The notes: a model not told the origin generated them from the sequence alone. A stretch of 64,000 nucleotides of DNA from Dehalococcoidia bacterium (GCA_965261455.1 OZ253453.1:3447372-3511371), one strand, 5' to 3'. Positions 6,784 to 56,435 are shown, numbered from the stretch's first letter. Numbers and translations are program-made.

Positions 6784-7620
6784 CTATTCCCCGGCGAACT
6801 CGGGGTCGCGCTTTTCGAGGAAGGACCGGACGCCCTCCTCGCGGTCGCTGCTCTGGAAGGCGTTGCGGAGGGTGAACGACTCGTACTGAGCGAAGGTCTC
6901 CAGGTCTTGCCGCAGGCCCAGATAGACGGCGCGTTTCGCCATGGCCAGTGCGATGGGCGGGCCCTTAGCGAGGGTCAGCGCGACCTCGCGGGTGCGCTCG
7001 TAGAGCTTGTCGTGGGGGACGACCTCGTTGACCAGACCAATCTCGGCGGCTTCCTTGCTGTCGAGCATCTTGCCCATGAAGATGATCTCCATGGCCTTGG
7101 GCAGAGGCACGATCTGGGGCAGGGTGTAGGCGCCAAGGGCCTCGGGAGGAATCCCCCGCTTCAGCCAGGCCGCGCCGAACTTGGCCTCGGTGGAGGCGAT
7201 GCGCAGGTCGCAGGCCAGGGCAAGGGAGAAGCCGACGCCGACCGCGGGTCCGTTAACGGCGGCGATGACGGGTTGGGGGGCGTGGCGCAGCGCCCGCACG
7301 AAGCTGTCCTGGCCGGTGCGCGGGGTGAAGCGTTTCTTCAGCAAGGGATGTTCGCCGCGGCGAGGCTCCTTCAGGTCTTGGCCCGAGCAGAAGCCGCGCC
7401 CGGCGCCGGTGATCACGAGCACCCTGGCGTCGCTTTGGGCGACGTGCTCGATGGTGTCGAAAATCTCATCGAGCATCCCCGGGGCCGTGGCGTTGAGCCG
7501 TTCGGGACGGTTGAGCGTGATCGTGGCGATGCCGTCGCCGTCGGTATCGAGCAGGACTCGCTCGCTTGCCATGAAGGACTCCCTGGAACAATCGCGCCGA
7601 AGCGCCGTGGCGAAGATCAT
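6784..7620 (-). CDS. Enoyl-CoA hydratase/isomerase (crotonase) family protein
   Basis: 278 aa with crotonase fold motifs (ITGAGRGFCSGQDL, AAVNGPAVGVGFSLALACD). Confidence 0.85.
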   Translation of the reverse strand: MIFATALRRDCSRESFMASERVLLDTDGDGIATITLNRPERLNATAPGMLDEIFDTIEHVAQSDARVLVITGAGRGFCSGQDLKEPRRGEHPLLKKRFTPRTGQDSFVRALRHAPQPVIAAVNGPAVGVGFSLALACDLRIASTEAKFGAAWLKRGIPPEALGAYTLPQIVPLPKAMEIIFMGKMLDSKEAAEIGLVNEVVPHDKLYERTREVALTLAKGPPIALAMAKRAVYLGLRQDLETFAQYESFTLRNAFQSSDREEGVRSFLEKRDPEFAGE

Positions 7621-18392: not shown

Positions 18393-18800
18393 GCATGCCT
18401 CGCTGAGGTGGAGGCGTAGGGGTTGGGAGCGCTTCGGGCGCCCGCGCGCCGCAGGCGCGCGCCCTCTCTTGGTCTCGCCCTAGAGAAACCTTGCGTAACC
18501 TCGTCGCGGAGGGAGCGGGCGCCCACGAGGGGCGCCCCTACGGGAGGGATGGATTCCCGCGAACGCGGGAATGACGGATATGGAGCAGAGGGGAGGGCGA
18601 TTCGCGAATCGCCCCTACGGGGAGCGCGGCGCGGGTTGGCGGGCTTCGATGGGCTTTGGTGGTTGCGAGGGTGCCCCTCATCTCAATCTTCTCCCGTGGG
18701 GAGAAGAGGCAAGACCTCCCGGCCCCGCCCATGCTTGCCCGTGGGCGGTTGTGCAGAGGTCTCCGTTGGGAGAGGGGGTAAGACTTCACCCCGCCGCGGT
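18393..18800. repeat. Cluster of mosaic intergenic palindromic repeat modules (families A/B/C)
   Basis: Contains gggcgcccctacgggagggatggattcccgcgaacgcgggaatgacggatatgg (module B) and cttcgatgggctttggtggttgcgagggtgcccctcatctcaatcttctcccgtggggagaagaggc (module C). Both recur elsewhere in the window. Track ORFs here are artefacts. Confidence 0.8.
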
Positions 18801-20499: not shown

Positions 20500-20944
20500 T
20501 GTCCTTCCCTCTCTCAATCTCTCCCAGAGGGAGAGAGGTTTAAGGTGCTCTCCCAGGGGGTTTAAGGTGCTCTCCCTAGGGGGAGAAAGGTGCTCTCCCA
20601 GGGGGAGAGAGGCTTATGGTGGCCCTCTCTCAGTCTCTCTCAGAGGAGACCTTTACGTAACCCTTGTCGCGAGGGAACGGGCGCCCACTAGGGGCGCCCC
20701 TACGGGAGGAGATGGATTCCCGCTTGCGCGGGAATGACGGATGGGGGCGGGGCCGGGCACTCAGAAGGCGAGAGTGGTGCGCTTCGATGGGCCTTGGTGG
20801 TTGTGAGGGGGCCCCTCATCTCAATCTTCTCCCGGGGGGGAGAAGAGGCCGGAGGGATGGGATGGATTCCCACTTGCGCGGGAAAGACGGATATGGGCGG
20901 GTCTTGCATGAGGTTTCCAGAGGGAGAGGCTTACGGTGTGGCGG
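20500..20944. repeat. Cluster of mosaic intergenic palindromic repeat modules (families A/B/C)
   Basis: Several copies of ccctctctcaatctctcccagagggagagagg (module A). Also module B (…atggattcccgcttgcgcgggaatgacgg…) and module C (cttcgatgggccttggtggttgtgagggggcccctcatctcaatcttctccc…). Confidence 0.8.
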
Positions 20945-21852: not shown

Positions 21853-22113
21853 ATGGGCAAGGCGTGGCAGGTCCAAGACGCTAAGGCGAGGTTCAGCGAG
21901 TTTCTTGAAGCCAGCCTGGCGGATGGGCCGCAGATCGTGACTCGACGAGGCGTGGAAACGGCGGTGCTTCTTCCCATCGAGCAGTGGCGGAGGTTGGAGA
22001 AGATAACGAAGCCGGACCTGAAGGAGTTGTTGCTCGCGCCGGACGCGCGAACCGACTCGCTCACGCCGCCGCGCCGTGAGCATCGTCACCGAACACCCTC
22101 GGCCATCGAGTAG
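21853..22113 (+). CDS. Type II antitoxin, Phd/YefM family
   Basis: 86 aa (MGKAWQVQDAKARFSEFLEASLADGPQIVTRRGVETAVLLPIEQWRRL). Ends 5 nt before the PIN toxin gene. Confidence 0.8.
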   Translation: MGKAWQVQDAKARFSEFLEASLADGPQIVTRRGVETAVLLPIEQWRRLEKITKPDLKELLLAPDARTDSLTPPRREHRHRTPSAIE

Positions 22114-22117
22114 CCCG

Positions 22118-22525
22118 ATGTACCTGCTCGATACGAACGTGGTCTCGGAGCTGCGGCGTCCAAGGCCTCAGAGGGCCGTCTTAGACTGGATCGCGGACGT
22201 GCCCGCGGAGCAGCTCTTCATATCCGCGGTCACGGTTGGGGAGATCCAGGCAGGGATCGAAATCACTCGCGTGCAAGATGGGGCGAAGGCGGAGGAACTA
22301 GAAGCCTGGCTCGATAGAGTCCTCGCCTCCTATAGCGTCCTGTCGATGGACGCCGCTGCTTTCCGGGAGTGGGCACGGCTCATGCACGGAAAGTCGGACA
22401 CCATAACCGAGGACGCCATGATCGCGGCGACGGCTATCGTTCACAGGCTGACGGTGGTGACTCGGAACGTGGGTGACTTTCGCCAACTTGGCGTGGCGTT
22501 GCAGAATCCCTTCGACAACGAGTAG
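22118..22525 (+). CDS. vapC: Type II toxin VapC (PIN domain)
   Basis: MYLLDTNVVSELRRPRP… with PIN acidic residues (D5, E…, D near the C-terminus in …VTRNVGDF). Internal ATG of track ORF 22076. Confidence 0.85.
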   Translation: MYLLDTNVVSELRRPRPQRAVLDWIADVPAEQLFISAVTVGEIQAGIEITRVQDGAKAEELEAWLDRVLASYSVLSMDAAAFREWARLMHGKSDTITEDAMIAATAIVHRLTVVTRNVGDFRQLGVALQNPFDNE

Positions 22526-24673: not shown

Positions 24674-25663
24674 ATGGACTCCAAGCTGGGGCTTGTGCTC
24701 TACCACGGCTTTGAAAGCGGGGCGGAGTTGGCGCGGTACGCCGAGATCGCGGAGCGCGAGGGGTATGAGAGCCTGTGGATGACGGAGCGCAGCGGCCACG
24801 AGGAGGCCTTCGCGACGCTGGGCTACGCGGCGGCGTCGACGAGCCGGCTGCGGCTGGGGCTCGGCGTGGCCAACGCCTACTCGCGCCATCCGGTGCTGCT
24901 GGCGATGGCGGGCGCGACCCTCGACCGGCTCTCCGGCGGCCGCTTCATCCTGGGCTTGGGCGCGAGCGACCGCGATGTAATCGAGGGGAAGCTGGGCATC
25001 CCGCACGAGCGGCCGATCGCGGAGCTGGAACGCGCCGTCCGGTCGCTGCGGGCCCTGTTCGCAGGGGAAACGGTCGATGAGGAAGCGGGGCGGAGCAAGA
25101 TACGCGGCGTCCGGCTGGGCGTGCATCCCGTGGCCGAGCCGCTGCCGCTCTATGTGGCGGCGGCGGGGCCTAGGGCGCTGGCGATGGCGGGTCGGACCGC
25201 CGACGGGATCATCCTGAATACCTACAGCCCGACGTCGTACGTGCGGTGGGCGGTCGCGACGGCGCGGCGGGCGGCGGAGGAGTCGGGGCGCGACCCCGCG
25301 TCGCTCGACGTGGTGTGCATGCTGGTGGTGCGGCTCACCGACGATCCCTCATCGCTCTACCCCATGTTCAAGGAGCGGGTGGCGCGGCTGTTGTCGGAGC
25401 CCCACGGCGGCGAGCTGCTGCTGAAGGACAGCGACTTCGATCCTGTCCTAGCGGGCCGCGTCCGCGAGGCGGCCTCGGACGGGGGGACGAAGGCGGCCGC
25501 CACGCTGATTCCCGAGGCGATGGTGGAGGAGTTCTACGTCCTCGGCGACGCGGCCCGGTGCAAGCAGCGCATCAAGGAGTACCGGGCGGCGGGGGTGGAC
25601 CAACCGCTGCTGCTGCCTCGGCTGGAGGACTTCGAGGCGGTGGCGTCGGCGTTCGCGGGGTAG
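24674..25663 (+). CDS. LLM-class flavin/F420-dependent oxidoreductase
   Basis: 329 aa (…ESLWMTERSGHE…). Its last 128 nt are duplicated at 28119..28248. Confidence 0.85.
   Translation: MDSKLGLVLYHGFESGAELARYAEIAEREGYESLWMTERSGHEEAFATLGYAAASTSRLRLGLGVANAYSRHPVLLAMAGATLDRLSGGRFILGLGASDRDVIEGKLGIPHERPIAELERAVRSLRALFAGETVDEEAGRSKIRGVRLGVHPVAEPLPLYVAAAGPRALAMAGRTADGIILNTYSPTSYVRWAVATARRAAEESGRDPASLDVVCMLVVRLTDDPSSLYPMFKERVARLLSEPHGGELLLKDSDFDPVLAGRVREAASDGGTKAAATLIPEAMVEEFYVLGDAARCKQRIKEYRAAGVDQPLLLPRLEDFEAVASAFAG
25537..25663 (+). repeat. Direct repeat copy 1 (3' end of the LLM gene) bounding the HEPN-STAND island
   Basis: ctacgtcctcggcgacgcggcccggtgcaagcagcgcatcaaggagtaccgggcggcgggggtggaccaaccgctgctgctgcctcggctggaggacttcgaggcggtggcgtcggcgttcgcggggtag. 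Five mismatches versus copy 2. The 3' 85 nt or so are identical. Confidence 0.85.
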
Positions 25664-25714
25664 GAGCGCGGGGCCATGGACGCCTAAGCCGGAAACCGCC
25701 GAACCTGGCCTTCG

Positions 25715-28048
25715 CTAGGCGTTAAGGTAGCCGCGCAAGTCAGGGAATCGATACAGAAGTCGCTCTTTCTCCGACGCTGCATCGGCATCGTGGGGGTGTT
25801 CTTTCCCCCAGCTTATCAAAGACTGAGATAGCATCTTGAGAGAGCGATGCCGTTGATCGGCCTCTTGGTGAGCTTCACTGATGCGTGCCAGGCGCTCGTA
25901 GTTCAGCACGATAGCACGACATACCTGACTGCGGGACTGATATGGACCATGCTCGAACTCTTCCGGATCCGAGAGTGCATCCTTGAGATGAGTCTCCGCT
26001 TTACGTGCTTCTTGTATTGCTCGGTCGTACTGAACTTGTTGGTACAAGTCCTGAGCCAATCGGCTTCGAGCATATCCAGCCAGGAAGGAAAGCCGCTCGG
26101 AGGGGCCGACGTTCTTGAGGCCGTTTTCAGCAGACCGGGCTGCTGCAGTCCACTCTTGTCGATCACCCTCCATGCTTGACCAGTGCCTGTAGGTTTCCAT
26201 GTTTGAGGACTTAAACTTCGATGCCCGCTCGAAGTGGTAGCGGGCGTCGGTGTAACGGGGCTGCGGTTTCCAGGCTTTGTAAACCCAGCCTAGCATTCCA
26301 TGCAGGTCAGGGTTGTCGGGGTACACGTTCAAGGCGTTGAGAAGAGTCTCTCGGGCATCAGAGTGTTTGTCCAATTTCACTAGGCTGATGGCTTGCCTAA
26401 TATATTGGCCGATACGCCCACGGTCTGCAGGTGACGGTCGCGCCTTGTCCTTGAAGAGCTTGAGAGCGCTTGCTATGCGGCGAGTCAGGTCCGATCCTTC
26501 ATAGACGTCCCGCACCAGTTTTCGCGTGTTCGAATTCAGTGAAAACCTGGACTGTCCTTCGACGAGGTGCGGGGCAGGCAACAAGAATAACTCCTGTAGC
26601 TGCTCAACCGAGTCCTTGCATTCACTTTCCGATAGGTCAGCGACATCCTGTATTTCGGCCAGGGATATCTCTCCCGGATAGAGCGCGCAAGTCAGTAGTG
26701 CCTTCTGGGCTGGAGGTGAGAGCATGTCGAACTCTCTTCCCAAGGCATACCTACGAGCGTCCTCCCCTCCATTATCACGCCATTTATTTGTCGCCATATG
26801 AGGGGTCTCACCCACCTTGCACAAACGCAGCAAGTCTTGAACAAAGAGCGGGCTTCCTTCGCACACCTTCAAGATTTCACGGATGGTGGAACGTGTAAAT
26901 TGACTGGGTTCTAAACCGTACATAGCCACGCGGCTCTTGACAAACTCTATTCCGTCATTTTCAACCTCGAAACCCTTCACCTGTGTCCGTTCCATGGCAT
27001 AGCGAGCTCGGCGTGAGGTAAGCAGGAACTTTGACGGTGTCTTCGTGCGATTCAGAAAGAAGGATACCGCCTCGTCGCTTTCAAGAGAGTCTATGTCGTC
27101 AAGGATAACCAAAGCTGGTAGCAACGAGAGTGATTGACGACACTCGCCTTCTTTCTCTGGAATACCCATGCCTTCGATGTCGGGGCAACCATAGGCACGG
27201 AGGATACAGTCGATGGCGGAATCAAGATTCCAGAAATCCGGTGCTTCGATGTCGACGGTACGGCCTGCTTCGAACCGGCGAGCCTTGGCGCTCATCCAAA
27301 TGATGTATTGAAGGTCAGGAGGTGGATCTTGTGTCACTGACACAGCAAACTGGTAGGCGATGGCGGTTTTGCCTTTCCCTCCGTCGCCCGCCAATAGCCA
27401 GGCGCTGGAATAAGGATCGTTGACCCACTCATGTAGTTGTTGGAGCTCCGCTTTCCTACCGACGAATTGCAGCGCCACCGATTCTCGTGGTGGCAAGGTG
27501 TTCTCCAGCAATCTCTTCTCTGCTATAGCTGCGCTGTTGAATGCTATGCCGCTGATGGATTCGTAGAGAGTTAGAATCTGCTTAGCGGCTTCCATATCAA
27601 TATGGTCCAAGATACGCCTAGCAGAATCCAGCAACATGAGTGCGTCTTTGTCATCCACATCAGCTTCTGCTGGGTGTCCGACGATCGGATTCCGAAGGGT
27701 GGCCACAGTTCTTGCCCACCCAAGGACCGCTTGTCGCCTATCTTTTGTGGGAACTGGCGCCTCTTGATGACTGGGAAATAGGTCGTTGAAGTATTTCTCG
27801 AATAAGTTGAAGAAGTGATGCGCATCTAGCAGATCTGCATCATCCCTAAGTGGTGTCTCAAGTTCACCGGTCGCTCGGACCGTTGCAGCTTTTTCCTTGA
27901 TCCCGGGCCATTCCTTTTGGAATGATGCGGCAATCCTCGTTTGCCAGTCGCCCGGGTATTTTTCGCTCAGCATGTTGCGAATGTGGTTCACGACGGCATT
28001 GCGATAGATTCGGAGTCCGTCAAAGCAAATTGTGTTTGTGGAGGGCAT
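25715..28048 (-). CDS. Tripartite conflict-system-type protein: N-terminal Swt1-like HEPN RNase domain, STAND (NB-ARC-like) P-loop NTPase, C-terminal TPR repeats
   Basis: 777 aa. HEPN R-x5-H in …ATLRNPIVGHPAE…. Walker A LLAGDGGKGKTAIA, Walker B LVILDDIDSL, sensor LLTSRRA. TPR-like C-terminus (…LLNALNVYPDNPDLHGMLGWVYKAW…). Markedly lower G+C than the flanks. Confidence 0.8.
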   Translation of the reverse strand: MPSTNTICFDGLRIYRNAVVNHIRNMLSEKYPGDWQTRIAASFQKEWPGIKEKAATVRATGELETPLRDDADLLDAHHFFNLFEKYFNDLFPSHQEAPVPTKDRRQAVLGWARTVATLRNPIVGHPAEADVDDKDALMLLDSARRILDHIDMEAAKQILTLYESISGIAFNSAAIAEKRLLENTLPPRESVALQFVGRKAELQQLHEWVNDPYSSAWLLAGDGGKGKTAIAYQFAVSVTQDPPPDLQYIIWMSAKARRFEAGRTVDIEAPDFWNLDSAIDCILRAYGCPDIEGMGIPEKEGECRQSLSLLPALVILDDIDSLESDEAVSFFLNRTKTPSKFLLTSRRARYAMERTQVKGFEVENDGIEFVKSRVAMYGLEPSQFTRSTIREILKVCEGSPLFVQDLLRLCKVGETPHMATNKWRDNGGEDARRYALGREFDMLSPPAQKALLTCALYPGEISLAEIQDVADLSESECKDSVEQLQELFLLPAPHLVEGQSRFSLNSNTRKLVRDVYEGSDLTRRIASALKLFKDKARPSPADRGRIGQYIRQAISLVKLDKHSDARETLLNALNVYPDNPDLHGMLGWVYKAWKPQPRYTDARYHFERASKFKSSNMETYRHWSSMEGDRQEWTAAARSAENGLKNVGPSERLSFLAGYARSRLAQDLYQQVQYDRAIQEARKAETHLKDALSDPEEFEHGPYQSRSQVCRAIVLNYERLARISEAHQEADQRHRSLKMLSQSLISWGKEHPHDADAASEKERLLYRFPDLRGYLNA

Positions 28049-28118
28049 TGGGAAGTCGCTTTAGGGCAGCTGTGAGGCCGTCGCGAGTCTAGTTGCATTG
28101 ATGGAGTCCTGCAAGTGC

Positions 28119-28248
28119 CTACCTCCTCGGCGACGCGGCCCGCTGCAAGCAGCGGATCGAGGAGTACCGGGAGGCGGGGGTGGACCAACCGCTGCTGCTG
28201 CCTCGGCTGGAGGACTTCGAGGCGGTGGCGTCGGCGTTCGCGGGGTAG
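28119..28248 (+). repeat. Direct repeat copy 2 (displaced copy of the LLM gene 3' end), distal border of the island
   Basis: ctacctcctcggcgacgcggcccgctgcaagcagcggatcgaggagtaccgggaggcgggggtggaccaaccgctgctgctgcctcggctggaggacttcgaggcggtggcgtcggcgttcgcggggtag. Confidence 0.85.
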
Positions 28249-28258
28249 GCGTGCGGCG

Positions 28259-30133
28259 CTAGCGGTTGCCTTCGACCACTACGGTGATGATGTCGATCTG
28301 GTGATACTTGCGGTGCTGCACGGAAGAGGCGTAGTGCCGCAGTAGGCGGAATGAGATCTCGCGGTCGTCCTGGATCTCGGGCTGATCGCTCAGGTACGCC
28401 TGCCGGTCTTCGAGGTTTTCTTCGTCCGCGGCAGCCGCGAACTCCATCTCGATCTTTCCATTGATGCGGCGTGCGTTGATGATCAAGCTTCGTTTGTCGC
28501 CGTCTTGGTCCTGAGGCAGCAAACTCTCCAGCGTCTCCTCACCGGCTGAACGCAGCCTGTCCGTTGAGGCCTCGTTCCAGCCCGCCTTGGAGGCAACGTC
28601 GCTCAGGAACGCGTCTATTTGGGGAAGCGCGGCGACATTCAGCTCTACGTTCAACCGTCTGCGCCGGGAGCCGCCAAGCTCCAGCAAGAGAGTGAAGGCG
28701 ATCAAACTCACGGCGCCAACGGTCAGGCCGTTGCCAAGGAGGGTTTCTAACGTCCCGCTGAGGACGTCGGAGAAGATCAGGTCGTTCTGGAAGCCTACGC
28801 CCAGCCAGAAGGAGACACCGACCGCGAGAGCTTTCTTCGGGTCGAGGCCGTCGCCGATGACCAACTTCATGCCCTGCACGAACAGCAACGCCAGTGTGAC
28901 GGTCACATAGGCGCCGAAGACGGCGCCGGGGATGGCGGTAATGAGGGCTATCAGCTTGGGAAGGAAGGCCACCGCGATGAGAATGGCCCCGCCGTAGACG
29001 CTGATGCGGCGCGCGGCGACCCCGGTGATGAGGGTCCGCGGGGCATTGCTCGGTGGGGCCATGTTGGGGAGCGATCCAAGGGCGGCGGACATGAGGTTGG
29101 TGAGGCCGATGACATTCAACGTGCCTTGGACGACGCGGAAATCGGCGGCGCGCGGCCTGCGCCACGAGACCTGTTGAATGGCAACCATGTCGCTAATGCC
29201 GTAGAGCGTGGTGGAGAGGGTCACGATGATGAAGCCGGGCAGGAGGCCCCAGAATTCCGTGCCCAGACCGAAATCGAAGTTTGGCCGCGCATCGAGGGGC
29301 AGGCCGATCCAGGCCGCGTCGAGGAAGGGCTGAACGTCAAAGAGGCCGAACGGCGCTGCAACGACACAGCCGGCCACGATGGCAATGACCGGCGTCCACT
29401 GCTGCAAGATAGGGGTGCCAAATAAGCGCAGCGCGATAAGGAGGGCGAACGTCGCTCCCGCGATGGTGGGAGCGGCATGGCTGGCCGCGCCTTCGGGGGT
29501 TGCCGACAGCCTGCTGAGGAGGACCGACATGACGGTGCCCGCCAGCAGCATGAGGACGGAGCCGGTGACCGTCGGGGTGATGATGCGGCGCAAGAGGGAG
29601 AGCCTCGAGACCAGCACGAACTGAAAGATCGCGGAAACGACGATGAGGCTCGACAGCATGGCGGGTCCGCCCGCCACCAACGCGCTGATGGCGACCGCGA
29701 TGTAGGCGGAGCCGTTGGAGACGCCCAGTGGATACCCCGCCCCGAATCGCCAGATTCTGAAGGACAGAAGGATGGTGCCGAATCCACATATCGCCAGGGA
29801 GCAGAAAAAGACCCACGACAGGTAGCTTTCGGGTTGGCCGCTTGCCTGAACGATGATGGCGGTGGAGGCGGCCATCCCCGACAGCCGGCTCATAACGCTC
29901 TGGAAGCCCTGGCCAAGGGCCACCATGGGAGGCGGCTCTTCGTCCGGCTCGTAGAGGATGTAGTCGTTTGTCTGCGGCGCGGCCAAGTCCGTTCTCGAGT
30001 TGCTGCTTGTGGGGACCGCTTCCGTTGACGGCGCTTTCAGGGCCGGGATACGGGACGGGCGGTGGGATAGCAGACCGCCGATGGCGGCACACCCGCGGAA
30101 GCGGCGGCGGATGGTGGGCGGGGACCCCCTCAA
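28259..30133 (-). CDS. Nucleobase/anion permease-family membrane transporter (NCS2/SulP-like core) with a C-terminal cytoplasmic domain
   Basis: About 12 predicted TM segments rich in G/A/L/I, then a soluble tail of about 150 aa. The first 69 codons are low-complexity, so the start is probably the internal ATG near 29926 (MVALGQGFQSV…). Confidence 0.65.
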   Translation of the reverse strand: MRGSPPTIRRRFRGCAAIGGLLSHRPSRIPALKAPSTEAVPTSSNSRTDLAAPQTNDYILYEPDEEPPPMVALGQGFQSVMSRLSGMAASTAIIVQASGQPESYLSWVFFCSLAICGFGTILLSFRIWRFGAGYPLGVSNGSAYIAVAISALVAGGPAMLSSLIVVSAIFQFVLVSRLSLLRRIITPTVTGSVLMLLAGTVMSVLLSRLSATPEGAASHAAPTIAGATFALLIALRLFGTPILQQWTPVIAIVAGCVVAAPFGLFDVQPFLDAAWIGLPLDARPNFDFGLGTEFWGLLPGFIIVTLSTTLYGISDMVAIQQVSWRRPRAADFRVVQGTLNVIGLTNLMSAALGSLPNMAPPSNAPRTLITGVAARRISVYGGAILIAVAFLPKLIALITAIPGAVFGAYVTVTLALLFVQGMKLVIGDGLDPKKALAVGVSFWLGVGFQNDLIFSDVLSGTLETLLGNGLTVGAVSLIAFTLLLELGGSRRRRLNVELNVAALPQIDAFLSDVASKAGWNEASTDRLRSAGEETLESLLPQDQDGDKRSLIINARRINGKIEMEFAAAADEENLEDRQAYLSDQPEIQDDREISFRLLRHYASSVQHRKYHQIDIITVVVEGNR

Positions 30134-30595: not shown

Positions 30596-30997
30596 CTAGG
30601 GGGTCTCTAGGCCCTCGGCGAGAGCGGCCCCCGCCAGTTTTCTATCCAGCGTGGCCAGTGTCGTTCCCAGCCGTTTGGCCAACTCCAAGTACAGGGCATC
30701 GTAGAAGGACAGGCCATGTTCTCTCGCGAGATTGAAGGCCGCCTGGAGGTTGGTGTCACCGTCGGTGCGTATGGGCAATGCCTTTAGGGAATCCAGACGC
30801 TCCGTGGTCCCATTCTGGGACACTCGGCCCCGACGCTCCGCTGCCAGCAGCGCGTTGCGCACCTCGTCGTGCCAGAGCGGCGGCACGATCGCCCCATCCC
30901 GCCGGAGCCGCGTCAACGCGTCGGCGGCCCTTGGTTCAAACTCGTCGTCCAAGAGCCAATCGGCGGTGATCGACGCATCGAGAACGAGACGGCTCAT
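30596..30997 (-). CDS. vapC: Type II toxin VapC (PIN domain)
   Basis: MSRLVLDASITADWLLDDE… with the PIN acidic quartet. Overlaps the antitoxin by 4 nt. Confidence 0.85.
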   Translation of the reverse strand: MSRLVLDASITADWLLDDEFEPRAADALTRLRRDGAIVPPLWHDEVRNALLAAERRGRVSQNGTTERLDSLKALPIRTDGDTNLQAAFNLAREHGLSFYDALYLELAKRLGTTLATLDRKLAGAALAEGLETP

Positions 30998-31245
30998 ACG
31001 CGGCGGCCCTCGCGGTGGGCGGTCACGATTTCGTCGAGGGACATTCCGGTGGGCTCCCAACCGGCCCGCAGTTGTAGGAACCGGTCCACGGCTGCCTCGC
31101 GATCGGCCCGGGCTTGGGTGTGGGCCGGGACCAAGTGGGCGATGGTCGCGCCGTGGCGCGTGATTGCGACGGTCTCGCCGTGTTCGACACTTCGCAGGAG
31201 CTCGGCGAGGCGTGTCTTTGCTTCCGTAGCTTGAACTTTACGCAT
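30994..31245 (-). CDS. Type II antitoxin, Phd/YefM family
   Basis: 83 aa (MRKVQATEAKTRLAELLRSVEHGETVAITRHGATIAHLVP). Confidence 0.8.
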   Translation of the reverse strand: MRKVQATEAKTRLAELLRSVEHGETVAITRHGATIAHLVPAHTQARADREAAVDRFLQLRAGWEPTGMSLDEIVTAHREGRRV

Positions 31246-38934: not shown

Positions 38935-39170
38935 GCGCCGGTGCTATGGTGAGCGCACCACCCCAGCGATAGCATCGCTGGCCCGACGCTCCCATCCGGG
39001 GGCGTCTCTTTGTGTGACGAGCTTCTTTCTGTCTCTTGTATTAGTAGCATGGCGCTGCTGGCAATCCCTAACGCCGGTGCTATCCGGTGTTATAGTTAGC
39101 ACACCCCCCCAGCGATAGCATCGCTGGGCCGACGTCCCCACCCGGGGGCGTCTCTTTTTGCCCTTGACAC
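38935..39170 (+). repeat. Two tandem units of about 85-95 bp, each with a perfect hairpin cagcgat-agc-atcgctg plus a terminator-like GC hairpin and T-tract. Candidate small RNA or leader elements
   Basis: Unit 1: ccggtgctatggtgagcgcaccaccccagcgatagcatcgctggcccgacgctcccatccgggggcgtctctttgtg. Unit 2: ccggtgctatccggtgttatagttagcacacccccccagcgatagcatcgctgggccgacgtccccacccgggggcgtctctttttg. Confidence 0.5.
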
Positions 39171-41384: not shown

Positions 41385-41600
41385 CAGCGCGTACCCTCTC
41401 TCAATCTCCCCCAAAGGGGGAGAGGCCGGAGGGGAGGGCGCCCACAAGGGGTGCCCCTACTAGAGCCGCAGGGCGTGGGCCGGATGGGCTTTGGTGGTTG
41501 CGAGGCGGCCCCTCATCTCAATCTTCTCCCGTTGGGAGAAGAGGCAAGACCTCCCGGCCCCACCCATGATTGAGCCTGCGGGCGGGTCGTGCAAAGCACT
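41385..41600. repeat. Intergenic repeat cluster (modules A, B, C)
   Basis: ccctctctcaatctcccccaaagggggagaggccggagggg …gggcgcccacaaggggtgcccctac… cttcgatgggctttggtggttgcgaggcggcccctcatctcaatcttctcccgttgggagaagaggc. Confidence 0.8.
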
Positions 41601-49258: not shown

Positions 49259-49738
49259 TTAAAAGCTGGCACCGAGCTCTGTGAGCAGCTCGAAAAGATT
49301 GATGCATTTGACCCCGTAATGATCGGCTACATCTGGAATCTTGGGTTTCGTTGACTGTGACTCGCGCTTTTCGAAAGTCACGACACGTCCGCCCTCTACG
49401 GCGGCGTGGGCAATCAGCCAAGCGTCCGCTTTCGCTAGAAAACGAGCAACGTGGTGTTGCGCGAAGCGATGATCGGCTTTTACCGAATCGGCGATCTGCC
49501 CGAAAACCCGCTGGACTTCTTCACTTGGTTGTCTGAAGAAGGACTCCTGGACGTTCGTGGCCCATGCATTCAGATCATCGTCGACCTCCTTGAGTTCACC
49601 AAAGACCCGCTCAGGTGCCGCGAAGACCTGTTCCTGAACCTTCCGGTCCAGGTAGCTCCAGAATGAAGGGACTAGTGCAAAGCTATAGTAAGTGCGGCTT
49701 GGCTGGATGAGCGTGTCCGAATCAAGCCAATCAGGCAT
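49259..49738 (-). CDS. DUF4411-family PIN-like nuclease-domain protein
   Basis: 159 aa. Paralog of 278..760. Overlaps the upstream ImmA gene. Low G+C. Confidence 0.7.
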   Translation of the reverse strand: MPDWLDSDTLIQPSRTYYSFALVPSFWSYLDRKVQEQVFAAPERVFGELKEVDDDLNAWATNVQESFFRQPSEEVQRVFGQIADSVKADHRFAQHHVARFLAKADAWLIAHAAVEGGRVVTFEKRESQSTKPKIPDVADHYGVKCINLFELLTELGASF

Positions 49739-50912
49739 GCGCCGGTCCGCTGCCCAGCAATCGGGCTTCGAGCCTGTCGTAGGTTGCTGAAGTGCTGATG
49801 TTCAGTAGAGACGCCGCTTCTCGATAGGGGACCTTCCCTTCGGCCACGGCGGTGAGCACGGTCATCGTGAAGGTGCGGCTATTCCGGCTCAGGACGTTGT
49901 TGTGGTAGTTGCCGCCACCATCTGTGCCCGCTTGCTGCAAGTCGTTTTTGAACTCGTTTAGCTTTTCGGCATAGGCGCTTGACTCAACCCGTCCATAGTC
50001 ATACGCCGACCGCAGTATGACAAACCTACTTACACGGTATTGACGCGATAGCTTCGCGATATTCTCGTCAAGCCCGATTGTGTCATCCCACCGCATGCTG
50101 AAGTTGTTCGGCGGAACGAGCACCTGAGCGGCAATCCGGTCGCATTGCCGCTCAGCGGGGTTGTTTTGTCGACTTGCACTTTTCGAATAGTCAGGGTTGG
50201 ATATTCCGCTCTGGCCGATCCAGAGATGCGCCAATTCGTGAGCGAGCGTGAATATCTGCGCGGACTTTGCATCTTTGGAGTTAATGAAGACCAGTGGAGC
50301 AAGTGGATCGTTGATTGCAAACCCTCTGAATTCACTCACATCTAGTGGCCTATGCGTGTTGTTGCCCACGATGCCACTTCGGAGAACTAGCACCCCGGCG
50401 TCTTCGGCCCGCCTTACAAACTCCGTTAGGAACTGCTCCCAATTTCCCGTATCGGCCCGCATGCGATCGTCAATACGCAATGCACTTGTGAGATCCGAAG
50501 CAACTACGGAAACCGGTTCGTTGAGGGTGTATTTACCAACAAACGGCAGCGACTCGGCACCCTTATCTTGTAGATACTCCCGGTACCAATCCTGTTTCCG
50601 AAGAGCATCTTCCAAAACTTCCAAGAAATCAGGGCTTGGATGCTCTGACGTGTCGGGTAACAGGGTGCGCAGGTCGGGCAGAGGGAGCTCTTCGGATGGG
50701 GGCTGTGCAAGGAAGAGATAGCCAAACGGGACGTTCAACTTGTCAGCAATGCCACCCGCCTTCTTGAAGGTCGGGCGTGATTCGCCACGTTCCCAACGCT
50801 GCAGCGTTGGCGCTACGACCCCCAGCCTCTTGGCTGCGGACGGGATGTCAAGACCCATCCGCTGCCGTGCCCATGTAAGGATCTCCGGCGTTACAAACGC
50901 TTCAGTCGTCAT
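49731..50912 (-). CDS. XRE-family HTH fused to an ImmA/IrrE-family (COG2856) zinc metallopeptidase
   Basis: N-terminal HTH (…LGVVAPTLQRWERGESRPTFKK…). HExxH in FTLAHELAHLWIGQ. Low G+C. Confidence 0.8.
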   Translation of the reverse strand: MTTEAFVTPEILTWARQRMGLDIPSAAKRLGVVAPTLQRWERGESRPTFKKAGGIADKLNVPFGYLFLAQPPSEELPLPDLRTLLPDTSEHPSPDFLEVLEDALRKQDWYREYLQDKGAESLPFVGKYTLNEPVSVVASDLTSALRIDDRMRADTGNWEQFLTEFVRRAEDAGVLVLRSGIVGNNTHRPLDVSEFRGFAINDPLAPLVFINSKDAKSAQIFTLAHELAHLWIGQSGISNPDYSKSASRQNNPAERQCDRIAAQVLVPPNNFSMRWDDTIGLDENIAKLSRQYRVSRFVILRSAYDYGRVESSAYAEKLNEFKNDLQQAGTDGGGNYHNNVLSRNSRTFTMTVLTAVAEGKVPYREAASLLNISTSATYDRLEARLLGSGPAHA

Positions 50913-54407: not shown

Positions 54408-56435
54408 TCAGTTACTTCCGGGGACGTAGTTCGGCGAGCCGCCGTCGGTCTTGTCGCCGAAAGGCGTGAAGTCCCGGTCGATCCAGAGTTGCTCCATGTC
54501 CTCGACGACGTCGGCGACGGTGCAGCACTGGGTCAGCGGCATGTTGCGCAACGAGGGCCACCAGGAGTGGAAGCGCTTGGTGCGGAAGAGGGGGACGAAG
54601 ATGCGGCGTTCGAGCAAGTCGATCTGGATCTCCTCGGCGATGGCCAACTGTTCGTCGAAGGTCCGGGCTTGGAGGAAGTCTACCCAAAGCTGACCGACTG
54701 GGCCGAGGTCCCAGTGCTCGGTGAAGTACCCCTCGTCGTTGAACGTCGGGCCGTACTGGAGGCGCATGTTGGCGCCGGGGAAGGGGGAGCCCGAGAAGAG
54801 GAAGAACCAGCCCACGTCCCAGTTCTTGGTGCGCAGCTCGTCGAAGTCGCTCGAGCCGGGGATCACGAGACCCTCGCCGGTGGGCACGACCCAGATGTCG
54901 GCCAGGGAGTCGATGGCGATCTGCATGGCCTCCTGGGAGGAGAGGCGGGCGACGAACCGCAGCTCAAGCGGATTGTCGGGGCTGAAGCCGGCGGCTCTCA
55001 TGAGCTGACGGGCGGCGAGGACGTCGCGGGCGCGGTCGACCTGGTTATCGGCGTAGCCGGGGCGGCCCTCGAACATCTGTCGAGGCAGGGCCCAGGCGCC
55101 GTTCAACTCGGCGGGGATACCGACGCCGTGGAGGACGATGGCGGTCTCCGGGCCGTAGGCGAGGTCGCGGACGGCGAACCGGTCGACGGCGATGTCGATG
55201 GCTTCACGGACACGGGGGTCCCTGAGGGCCGGGTTGCGGTTGTTGAGGAACAAGGAGTTCAAGGTGGACGCCATGTTCGCATGTTGCCAACCGGGGATGG
55301 AGTTGGTCAGCTCGGCGTTTCGTCCCGCCAAACGGTTGGTGACGACGGGCCGCTGCCAGAGGACGTTGCCCGAGGTGAAGGCGCCGATGATCGCGGTGGT
55401 GTCCGAGATGATGAAGATCTCGATGGCGTCGAGGTAGGGGATCTGCCGCCCCGCGGCGTCGGTCTTCCAATGGTCGGGGCTGGCTTCCATGGCGAACTTC
55501 ACGTCCGCCTCGGAGGAGACGAAGCGGAAGGGCCCGGTACCGTTGCCCTTCTCGTTGACATCGCCTGGCCTGACGTCGGAGGGGAGGATGTAGAGCGTCC
55601 GAGTGAGTTCGAGGAGCTGGTTGAAGAACGCGCTGCTGAACTCCTTGAGGCGAATTTCGACGGTGGTGTCGTCGATGGCGACGGCCGCGTCGACGACGGC
55701 CATGGCGGCGGCGTTCCCCGGGTCACGGAGCCTCGAAGGGGCGCCGCCGTCGCCTTCCGTCTGACTCTCATACTTCTCGGCGTTCTTCATCCGGTCCATG
55801 CTGTAGACGACATCTTCGGCGGTAAAGGCGGAACCGTCGTGGAACGTGACGCCCTCGCGGAGTTTGAAGGAGTAGACCTTCCCGTCGGAGCTCAGGGACC
55901 ATTCCGTCGCGAGGTCGGGGACGGCGCTCGCCCCGTCGAATTTGCTCGGTTCGATGAGCTTGTCGTACATGGGGCGGATGGGGGTGACGATGCCGGTGCT
56001 GATCCGCAGGAATGGATCGAGGCCGCGGGCGTTCAGTTGCTGCACCGCGGTGAGGGTGCCGCCGCGGATGGGATCGACGCCGGGAACCGCGGTGGGCACC
56101 GGCACGGGCGTGGCGGTGGGGGCGCGGGTCGGGGGTACGGCGGTGGGCGTGGCCCCGGGCATGGAGGTGGCCGCTGGCATGGCGGTAGCCGCGGGCATGG
56201 CGGTGGCCGCTGGCATGGAGGTAGCCCCGGGCATGGCGGTGGCCGCTGGCATGGCGGTAGCCGCGGGCATGGCGGTAGCCGCGGGCATAGCGGTAGCCGG
56301 CGCGGCCGTCGGCTGCGGCGCGGCCGTGGGTTGGGGTGCCTCGGTGGGATCGCCGCCGCCGCACGAGGCGACGATCAGCAGCATGACCCCGAGCGCGGCG
56401 ACAAACGAGAAGAGTCTGCGGTGCCGTGTGAGCAT
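54408..56435 (-). CDS. ABC transporter substrate-binding lipoprotein, family 5 (peptide/nickel, DppA/OppA-like)
   Basis: Lipobox LIVASCGG. (ATAMPA)n linker encoded by 18-nt tandem repeats. SBP_bac_5-type body. Confidence 0.85.
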   Translation of the reverse strand: MLTRHRRLFSFVAALGVMLLIVASCGGGDPTEAPQPTAAPQPTAAPATAMPAATAMPAATAMPAATAMPGATSMPAATAMPAATAMPAATSMPGATPTAVPPTRAPTATPVPVPTAVPGVDPIRGGTLTAVQQLNARGLDPFLRISTGIVTPIRPMYDKLIEPSKFDGASAVPDLATEWSLSSDGKVYSFKLREGVTFHDGSAFTAEDVVYSMDRMKNAEKYESQTEGDGGAPSRLRDPGNAAAMAVVDAAVAIDDTTVEIRLKEFSSAFFNQLLELTRTLYILPSDVRPGDVNEKGNGTGPFRFVSSEADVKFAMEASPDHWKTDAAGRQIPYLDAIEIFIISDTTAIIGAFTSGNVLWQRPVVTNRLAGRNAELTNSIPGWQHANMASTLNSLFLNNRNPALRDPRVREAIDIAVDRFAVRDLAYGPETAIVLHGVGIPAELNGAWALPRQMFEGRPGYADNQVDRARDVLAARQLMRAAGFSPDNPLELRFVARLSSQEAMQIAIDSLADIWVVPTGEGLVIPGSSDFDELRTKNWDVGWFFLFSGSPFPGANMRLQYGPTFNDEGYFTEHWDLGPVGQLWVDFLQARTFDEQLAIAEEIQIDLLERRIFVPLFRTKRFHSWWPSLRNMPLTQCCTVADVVEDMEQLWIDRDFTPFGDKTDGGSPNYVPGSN

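Follow-up and report, generated by a model that had tools for sequence, protein, structure and literature searches.

A repeat-bracketed, integrase-free islet encoding a HEPN-STAND-TPR protein, a putative immune receptor, in a Dehalococcoidia genome

How does a single gene come and go among closely related genomes when no mobility gene travels with it, and what might such a gene do? This question is raised by a 64,000-nt stretch of the genome of a Dehalococcoidia bacterium (GCA_965261455.1 OZ253453.1:3447372-3511371), here called the window, whose coordinates are used throughout. Between positions 25675 and 28118 the window carries a 2.4-kb segment, hereafter the islet, with a single credible open reading frame (ORF) that encodes a 777-aa protein of HEPN, STAND and TPR modules. 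The islet lies between two direct copies of the 3' end of a gene for a luciferase-like (LLM-class) oxidoreductase. We consider it probable, with moderate confidence, that the locus is a single-gene accessory immune islet that originated by homology-facilitated illegitimate recombination (HFIR) and is lost through recombination between its flanking repeats.

The ORF lies on the minus strand (25715..28048). An earlier note on this DNA, made from the sequence alone, had read in it an N-terminal HEPN RNase, a STAND NTPase and a TPR-like C terminus, and the motifs on which it relied (LRNPIVGH, GDGGKGKT, LVILDDID and TSR) are all present. Profile and fold searches support this predicted composition of HEPN_Swt1, NB-ARC STAND and TPR modules, a tripartite layout of effector, NTPase and repeat sensor. 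The central NTPase (aa 195-520; 26489..27466, minus strand) passes the Pfam gathering cut-off for NB-ARC (25.6 vs. 23.5 bits) and gives weak Pfam matches to AAA_16 and NACHT. Invariance and family profile matches were assessed on 36 aligned homologues (40-85% identity), of which NB-ARC matches 35 (best E 5.6e-11) and AAA_16 all 36. Walker A (GDGGKGKT, aa 221-228; 27365..27388) is invariant at G221, G223, G224, K225, G226 and K227, Walker B (LVILDDID, aa 313-320; 27089..27112) at D317 and D318, and the sensor motif TSR (aa 344-346) at T344 and R346, the Walker motifs being read, like the NTPase, on the minus strand. An AlphaFold2 model of the whole protein (pLDDT 81.5) contains a NOD fold with the helical and winged-helix arm known from Apaf-1 and CED-4. 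Foldseek matches this model to CED-4, plant NLR resistosomes, 6mfv (a STAND-TPR protein from an archaeon), Apaf-1, MalT, Avs3 and Avs5 at E values from 1e-10 to 1e-5, with CED-4, the NRC/Sr35 resistosomes, 6mfv and Apaf-1 between 1e-10 and 1e-8 and all but MalT between 1e-10 and 1e-6.

The N-terminal domain (aa 1-168; 27545..28048, minus strand) is predicted to be a Swt1-type HEPN RNase effector. It matches HEPN_Swt1 over the full length of the model at 16.5 bits, below the cut-off of 27.5, and the same model is matched by 7 of the 36 homologues at E<=0.01 (best 7e-6); a precomputed PF18731 match is found on three database homologues. The domain is modelled with the all-alpha fold of HEPN proteins, and R119 and H125 of the HEPN motif LRNPIVGH (R119-x5-H125; aa 118-125; 27674..27697, minus strand) are invariant in the alignment. 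Some homologues have an R-x4-H variant (RDPxSHP) instead of R-x5-H, both of which lie within Rx4-6H. The C-terminal region (aa 540-777; 25718..26431, minus strand) is a predicted ligand sensor of TPR-like helical repeats. Here, TPR_16, TPR_11, TPR_2 and TPR-S match below threshold in the window protein (aa ~540-777) and TPR families are matched in homologues, while the model shows all-helical repeats at pLDDT >90 with Foldseek matches to TPR proteins. A search of NCBIfam with the protein returned only a marginal ProA match (E 0.02), and neither the protein nor the HEPN profile gave anything useful in sequence searches of the PDB.

The architecture has been described before. By sequence analysis, Anantharaman et al. 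(2013; PMC3710099) list 'Swt1-like HEPN + STAND ATPase + TPR (+S1)' proteins, and the window protein resembles their examples (Npun_F6454, MED222_16016 and Desac_1927 in Table 1) in having the same three modules with an N-terminal HEPN domain of the Swt1/Abi2 clade and an Rx4-6H motif. This likeness is one of architecture, and the S1/cold-shock RNA-binding domain that is often added in the published examples is not detected by Pfam in the window protein. For residues ~195-520, the NB-ARC domains of Apaf-1, CED-4 and plant NLRs are the best structural matches, in agreement with the Pfam NB-ARC match; however, sequence identity is only 12-17%, and the N- and C-terminal modules differ. With Avs1-5 and Avs7-21 (PMC13581612) the window protein has in common the order of effector, NTPase and TPR-like sensor, and its fold matches include Avs3 (8dgc) and Avs5 (9jap). 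Effector swapping, low G+C and defence-island neighbours, known from Avs, also occur in its family. The earlier note had called the protein Avs-like, which holds for the architecture and fails at the level of models: a search of PADLOC-DB 2.0 with its Avs and bNACHT models gave 0 families at E<=1, and the NTPase is of the NB-ARC/AP-ATPase type. The protein is also small, with a sensor of ~240 aa in 777 aa, whereas the sensors of the Avs census have at least 400 aa, and its effector is a predicted HEPN RNase, whereas those of studied Avs proteins are nuclease, SIR2, TIR or protease domains.

By analogy with these systems, the protein is probably an immune receptor of the Avs/NLR kind. The TPR region would bind a ligand derived from an invader, and ligand binding would license NB-ARC-driven oligomerisation, as in the solved Avs and NLR complexes. 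Oligomerisation would in turn assemble the Swt1-type HEPN domains into active RNase sites and thereby shut down the infected cell. The family context is consistent with such a role. At least 278 close homologues of ~780-800 aa are found, and at E<=1e-30 the family comprises 608 clusters at 50% identity. Some relatives combine the same NTPase-TPR body with another N-terminal domain, e.g., a metallophosphatase, which on sequence grounds we read as effector swapping. Immediate neighbours of family members are often defence genes (Type I/III restriction-modification (R-M), GmrSD, AIPR, AbiU, SspE, DRT, HEC-05 and McrBC), and in nearly all of ~85 family loci the G+C of the STAND gene lies below that of its flanks. 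A recent census of STAND proteins (2026; PMC13581612) reports hundreds of clades associated with defence, whose sensors are mostly TPR-like. Searches for carriage of the gene by phages gave no match, and on plasmids only distant STAND relatives (<=28%) were found. The next-closest family members (55-58% aa; L097 5222-7455, L096 and L098, where L-numbers denote loci other than the window) occur next to McrBC and between genes for DDE transposases, surroundings that differ from the metabolic neighbourhood in the window. For a 752-aa database version of the STAND protein (P0001), no contig location was found.

How the gene came to its site is recorded in the sequence around it. The LLM gene (24674..25663, plus strand; 329 aa) is intact and encodes an F420-type luciferase-like oxidoreductase (Pfam Bac_luciferase 5e-67; NCBIfam F420/LLM families) with dN/dS (non-synonymous over synonymous divergence) of 0.11-0.23 against its orthologues. 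Its last 130 nt plus a short spacer form a 141-nt direct repeat, 94% identical between the left copy (25534..25674, plus strand) and the right copy (28119..28259, plus strand). Between a TAC codon at 25535/28120 and the TAG at 25661-25663/28246-28248, both included, the copies span 43 codons and differ at 5 positions (3 non-synonymous and 2 synonymous in the LLM frame). Alignment thereby confirms the observation that the gene end recurs at 28119..28248 with 5 mismatches and an in-frame stop. Beyond the LLM stop, 11 nt more follow at a weak match of ~7/11, ending exactly at the stop codon (28259-28261) of an NCS2/xanthine-uracil permease gene (28259..30133, minus strand; Pfam Xan_ur_permease 7e-28; NCBIfam pbuX), which runs in the same direction as the STAND gene. 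The left copy, with 11 nt beyond the stop, completes the working LLM gene, while the right copy is a dead, non-coding remnant upstream of the STAND gene that adjoins the permease stop codon. One breakpoint thus lies 130 nt inside the LLM ORF and the other 10-11 nt beyond the LLM stop, at the permease stop codon; contrary to the earlier note, the element did not insert exactly at the gene terminus. Tandem and dispersed elements aside, the 64-kb window holds no other medium-range repeat of this kind within 15 kb, and chance is therefore ruled out as its source.

The islet carries none of the usual hallmarks of a mobile element. ORF calls and Pfam searches of the neighbours (LLM, permease, VapBC, DUF1330 and amidohydrolase genes) reveal no integrase or recombinase gene in the islet or nearby, in line with the earlier note, and Pfam detects no transposase at the islet. 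Terminal inverted repeats are absent from the islet ends, Rfam finds no family in the islet, and neither the window nor the sister loci described below have a tRNA or tmRNA as target. For a transposon or insertion sequence, a short target duplication of fixed length would be expected, whereas the duplication measures 141 nt here and 80 and 370 nt at sister loci. Unlike an integron cassette, the islet has no structured attC-type site at its ends according to Rfam and to the fold z-scores of its two non-coding edges (+0.6 and +1.5). The left inner edge (25675..25714, minus strand; 40 nt; fold z-score +1.5) is the 3' flank of the STAND gene, and a terminator scan that included it found none. The right inner edge (28049..28118, minus strand; 70 nt) lies upstream of the STAND start codon; a scan of it for a consensus sigma-70 promoter found none, and a weak candidate (TTGCAG-17 nt-TAGACT) was spotted by eye only. 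A CTTGCA motif upstream of the gene is kept in two related loci, L001 and L002.

A comparison of 12 related Dehalococcoidia loci, the window among them, shows that the islet is neither private to the window nor recent. The closest homologues of the STAND protein, P0002 (L001; 85% aa) and P0003 (L002; 72% aa), likewise lie between the permease and LLM genes with matching upstream synteny, and in both loci an LLM 3' remnant adjoins the permease stop and the inner junctions are identical to those of the window. With the LLM protein as bait, nine empty loci were found, in four Dehalococcoidia metagenome-assembled genomes (L003-L006) and five metagenome loci (L091-L095). In all nine, the LLM and permease genes are directly convergent and the 130-nt segment is single-copy, so that the empty sites expected by the earlier note exist and the gene is not conserved in all relatives. 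L094 and L095 are empty although they are 96-98% identical to the window over ~12 kb. Neither an alternative cargo nor a larger element occupies the LLM/permease junction in any of the 12 loci. A neighbour-joining tree of the flanks (3,667 positions) groups the window with empty L003 (bootstrap support 100%) and these two with occupied L001 (100%); in the other clade, L005 pairs with L006 (100%) and occupied L002 with empty L004 (97%). The occupied genomes hence do not form a clade, the sister of the window and that of L002 both being empty, and this patchy occupancy requires at least 3 gain or loss events.

Some features of these relatives stand apart from the occupancy of the site. The LLM orthologue of L094 has an in-frame 18-nt insertion (TGGGCGAAAGATCCACAT; ~6955-6972) within the segment that is duplicated in the window, giving a product of 335 aa. 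The permease gene (28259-30133 compared with L002, L004-L006 and L091) is ~77% identical in nucleotides and 71% in amino acids between the clades, where neighbouring genes are at 85-89% nt. The gene calls of L091 split it into two ORFs (270 + 246 aa), so that it may be a pseudogene there.

The alleles and the repeat copies preserve part of the history of the islet. With dN/dS of 0.16 against L001 and 0.11 against L002, the STAND gene is under purifying selection. Its synonymous divergence (dS) is 0.48 from L001 and 1.55 from L002, compared with 0.09-0.25 and 0.34-0.55 in neighbouring genes. Base composition bears out the low G+C noted earlier: overall G+C is 0.534 in the islet (25675-28118) vs. 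0.670 in the remainder of the window, and G+C at third codon positions (GC3) is 0.57 in the window allele vs. 0.83-0.94 in the neighbours. In the L001 and L002 alleles GC3 is 0.54 each. Polarised third-position changes from AT to GC and the reverse number 29:24 in the window and 29:43 in L001, without an AT-to-GC excess. GC3 has therefore stayed steady, and the low G+C gives no date for the insertion. Recent acquisition as the cause of the low G+C is unsupported, since all three alleles, at dS 0.5-1.5, have GC3 of 0.54-0.57 without drift; the composition looks like the equilibrium state of an accessory gene.

The repeat copies follow their own genome, with distances of 5 and 7 between paralogues and of 9-10 or more between orthologues. 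In the first 54 positions, the window remnant reads C5, C25, G37, G41 and A54, several of which are states of the other clade; C25, G41 and A54 are ancestral or other-clade states. The functional copy agrees with L094 at four of these five positions, 41 being the exception. From position 61 on, both window copies have G61 and G64, a combination otherwise found only in L094, and both have T85, which is unique to the window. The remnant of L001 is likewise mixed. The repeat copies are thus recombination mosaics and not a plain donor and host copy, which shows that recombination has acted within the repeats, as conversion tracts or crossovers. The earlier suggestion that the element brought or regenerated its own copy of the gene end therefore stands as to the duplicate, which is real, and not as to a simple donor and host origin of the two copies. 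An in-place duplication of the target after the split from L094 is excluded for the window, as the remnant lacks C54, which the functional copy has in common with L094.

Sister loci suggest how such a repeat can form. Among ~60 family loci with both flanks available, three further ones are bracketed by repeats (L025, L079 and L018). The repeat of L025 is a palindromic element of the REP/MITE type (repetitive extragenic palindrome or miniature inverted-repeat transposable element) and was dropped as a gene-fragment case. L079 has a 370-nt duplicate of the 5' end of uvrA, and L018 an 80-nt duplicate of a DUF4160-like 5' end within a defence island (Eco57I/MmeI-type R-M, DUF5677, STAND, AIPR). 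In all three gene-fragment loci, the window included, the STAND gene has the truncated fragment upstream of its start and, downstream of its stop, the copy that runs on into the intact gene. Among 165 control ORFs of at least 400 aa, 5 are bracketed by repeats of at least 50 nt, of which 4 are STAND family members; in the remaining one the repeat is a dispersed, MITE-like element.

L018 is the case in which the parental arrangements can be seen. In L036 and L019, the STAND gene of L018 (89-92% nt identity) is directly preceded by the R-M gene end, and both the DUF5677 gene and the upstream DUF4160 fragment are missing. The fragment of L018 ends in CGCTTCCACGC and runs straight into CTGGGAGAAGAAA...TGA, the R-M tail that L036 and L019 have upstream of STAND; CACTTCCACGCCTGGGAGAAGAA is part of the R-M gene itself. 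This upstream fragment is 97.5% identical to the DUF4160 allele of L019 and 87.5% to its own downstream copy, and the novel joint falls at a 9-11-nt microhomology, C[A/G]CTTCCACGC, between the DUF4160 gene and the tail of the R-M gene. The two alleles in the repeat and the microhomology at the joint indicate that the L018 repeat arose by the joining of two alternative arrangements of one hotspot. Judged from these sequences, homology made the join on one side and the microhomology on the other, which is the pattern of HFIR. We further observe that the microhomology encodes the peptide HFHA in both genes, that the extra ~920 nt lie between the copies of a 21-nt direct repeat (CTTCCACGCCTGGGAGAAGAA), and that both parental arrangements and the recombinant are kept at one defence hotspot (L018 4990-6000 vs. 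L036/L019 5750-6000). The gene order of this hotspot is R-M, X, DUF4160-AIPR, with STAND or DUF5677+STAND in position X.

We propose a corresponding origin for the window islet. The repeat would have been left by a single recombination event that joined an empty-type chromosome to a DNA fragment carrying the STAND gene beside an LLM gene; one side would have been anchored by LLM homology and the other joined illegitimately within the LLM 3' end. The two repeat copies would then act as a RecA substrate for scar-less deletion, which would regenerate empty sites, and the islet could return by ordinary homologous recombination in the flanks. Repeat-mediated loss and return through the flanks would together account for the patchy distribution. 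Touzain et al. (2010; PMC2884548) describe dimorphic small variable segments that are similarly strain-variable, flanked by direct repeats and devoid of mobile-element hallmarks. According to their survey, 10-18% of small variable segments are repeat-flanked and 66-94% of the flanking repeats are <30 bp. In contrast, the repeat measures 141 bp here (80 and 370 bp at the sister loci), is a fragment of a gene end and leaves the target gene intact. The same paper cites HFIR in transformable bacteria (de Vries and Wackernagel, 2002; Prudhomme et al., 2002, both as cited there).

Several observations weigh against this proposal. The parental arrangement, with a STAND gene by an LLM gene and no remnant, was not found among the next-closest relatives, and HFIR at the window locus therefore rests on the analogy with L018. 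The enrichment of bracketing repeats comprises only 3 independent events and was measured against neighbouring, mostly core genes. The dS of the STAND gene is 2-4x that of the flanks, which simple vertical descent with losses does not predict; the excess needs allele exchange or site-specific rate differences, and strict vertical descent fits it less well than exchange of alleles between lineages or a weaker homogenisation of a gene that is seldom shared. As to the immune role, no tie of the family to phage defence was found in the literature and no PADLOC model covers it, and the neighbours of the islet in the window are metabolic and do not form a defence island.

Which other explanations could the locus have? 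The source is a metagenome-assembled genome, and the duplicate or the insert might thus be a mis-join. This is effectively refuted because three independent assemblies (the window, L001 and L002) show the same structure, each with its own substitutions in both copies, and because purifying selection acts on the gene. A single ancient insertion, in which staggered breaks or template switching duplicated the 141 bp in place, could have been followed by vertical descent with at least four repeat-mediated losses, gene conversion keeping the copies alike. We regard this as quite unlikely. It agrees with the identical junctions in three genomes that span both clades, the congruence of the STAND topology with the flank tree, the ancestral states kept in the window and L001 remnants and the difference of only 4-6% between copies though the clades diverged by ~17%. 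However, it leaves unexplained the gene's excess of dS over its flanks and its GC3 of 0.54-0.57 without AT-to-GC drift in a background of GC3 0.9, and it needs many independent precise losses, including some inside the cluster of 96-98% identity. Moreover, L018, the sole case with visible parents, shows different alleles and not an in-place duplication. A duplicated gene 3' end that leaves the gene intact between direct repeats is the classical signature of islands made by an integrase. Hence, the repeats might be the attL and attR sites of a site-specific recombinase that acts on the LLM 3' end and is encoded elsewhere or lost, the islet being a remnant like a cis-mobilisable element (CIME). 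The real 141-nt repeat of the LLM gene end matches this signature, but the islet and its neighbourhood have no recombinase gene in cis, none of the 12 related loci holds a larger or parent element at the junction and the repeat is far longer than an att core or the usual att identity blocks. The sister repeats target unrelated sequences (the 5' ends of uvrA and DUF4160), so that no conserved site emerges, and at L018 two host genes meet at a microhomology, all of which makes an integrase-made island very unlikely.

Another possibility is that the islet moves as a circle. In this scenario, recombination between the repeats repeatedly excises the islet together with one repeat copy, and a single RecA crossover of the Campbell type inserts the circle into an empty LLM 3' end in a related cell; the 141-bp gene end on the circle would serve as the address, and each occupied lineage would represent a separate integration. 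Such an integration would give identical junctions each time, like those shared by the window, L001 and L002, and crossovers inside the repeat would yield the mosaic copies; divergence of alleles deeper than that of the flanks (dS 0.48 vs. 0.09-0.25), patchy occupancy and the same polarity at three independent loci also fit horizontal cycling. Yet no circle junction was seen, the divergence of the STAND gene scales with that of the hosts in a congruent topology as under vertical descent, and RecA would act poorly on 130 nt of homology in a circle that does not replicate. A linear, one-sided microhomology event accounts for the L018 joint, and double-crossover homologous recombination from an occupied donor would yield the same product without any circle. 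We therefore see the circular cassette as possible but unlikely. A broader version, which we hold to be unlikely and speculative, is that HEPN-STAND-TPR genes, and perhaps defence genes generally, spread without a recombinase as 'self-addressed' cassettes of a gene plus an adjacent stretch of host gene. The carried stretch would direct RecA-dependent integration into the same gene of a related genome, leaving a duplication of 80-370 bp, an intact target and the option of later precise excision; loci of this structure and polarity are known at the LLM 3' end, the uvrA 5' end and the DUF4160 5' end. With regard to function, the protein might be no immune receptor at all, and instead a STAND signalling or regulatory ATPase like MalT or AfsR or a housekeeping factor of RNA processing. 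Many members of STAND clades are non-defence proteins (PMC13581612), MalT is among the fold matches, the neighbourhood is metabolic and PADLOC gives no match. This alternative is nevertheless highly improbable in our judgement, considering that the protein has no DNA-binding output domain, that its presence varies among near-identical genomes, that its relatives swap N-terminal effectors and frequently neighbour defence genes, and that G+C is below that of the flanks in nearly all family loci. An immune islet formed by HFIR and lost through its repeats is the reading we retain as probable.

The rest of the window provides some context. A second islet of low G+C (0.52-0.57) at 49259-50912 (minus strand) encodes a DUF4411 protein (159 aa) and a protein with helix-turn-helix and M78-peptidase domains (393 aa), the latter matching PADLOC RmrA models (7e-20); together they resemble a Rosmer-like toxin/regulator defence pair. 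This second islet is not bracketed by a direct repeat, and the duplication is therefore no general feature of islets in this genome. Two toxin-antitoxin pairs of the PhdYefM-PIN (VapBC) type flank the region (21853-22525, plus strand; 30596-31245, minus strand), of which the one at 30.6-31.2 kb is variable: L094 and L095 have it, and L001 has other small ORFs in its place. The window also holds a dispersed repeat of the MITE/REP kind, ~130-175 nt long and containing GGATGGATTCCCGC..GCGGGAATGACGGAT, at 18527-18701, 20690-20896 and ~41484-41596; it recurs in L004 (4339-4481/6604-6744) and L001 (3859-3989). Two of its copies bracket an RraA-like and LLM gene pair at ~18.8-20.5 kb, the sole non-STAND bracketed ORF of the control. 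In addition, a tandem array at 56108-56323 has ~12 copies of an 18-nt unit (GGCATGGCGGTAGCCGCG-like) and probably encodes a repetitive peptide, and two 77-nt copies (38938-39014 and 39084-39160), 87% identical and 146 nt apart, each contain the internal palindrome CCCAGCGATAGCATCGCTGG.

Taken by itself, the locus is a solid, largely ordinary defence islet of the well-documented integrase-free, repeat-flanked and dimorphic kind, and its protein is a new, uncharacterised member of an architecture catalogued in 2013. We found no experimental work on a STAND member with a HEPN effector in the literature; HEPN-effector STAND receptors are a catalogued and experimentally untouched branch of bacterial NLR-like immunity. 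The family is compact (~780 aa, ~600 clusters) and models well with AlphaFold, which makes it tractable for studying how a STAND switch is coupled to an RNase and how short TPR sensors recognise their ligands. The stable GC3 near 0.55 in a genome of GC3 0.9, despite dS of 0.5-1.5, bears on the upkeep of high G+C in core genes. With its parental arrangements and microhomology joint, L018 offers direct sequence evidence of how integrase-free islets can arise, and the window locus illustrates cleanly, in nature, how near-identical genomes of an uncultured Dehalococcoidia lineage gain and lose one defence gene with no dedicated mobility gene involved.

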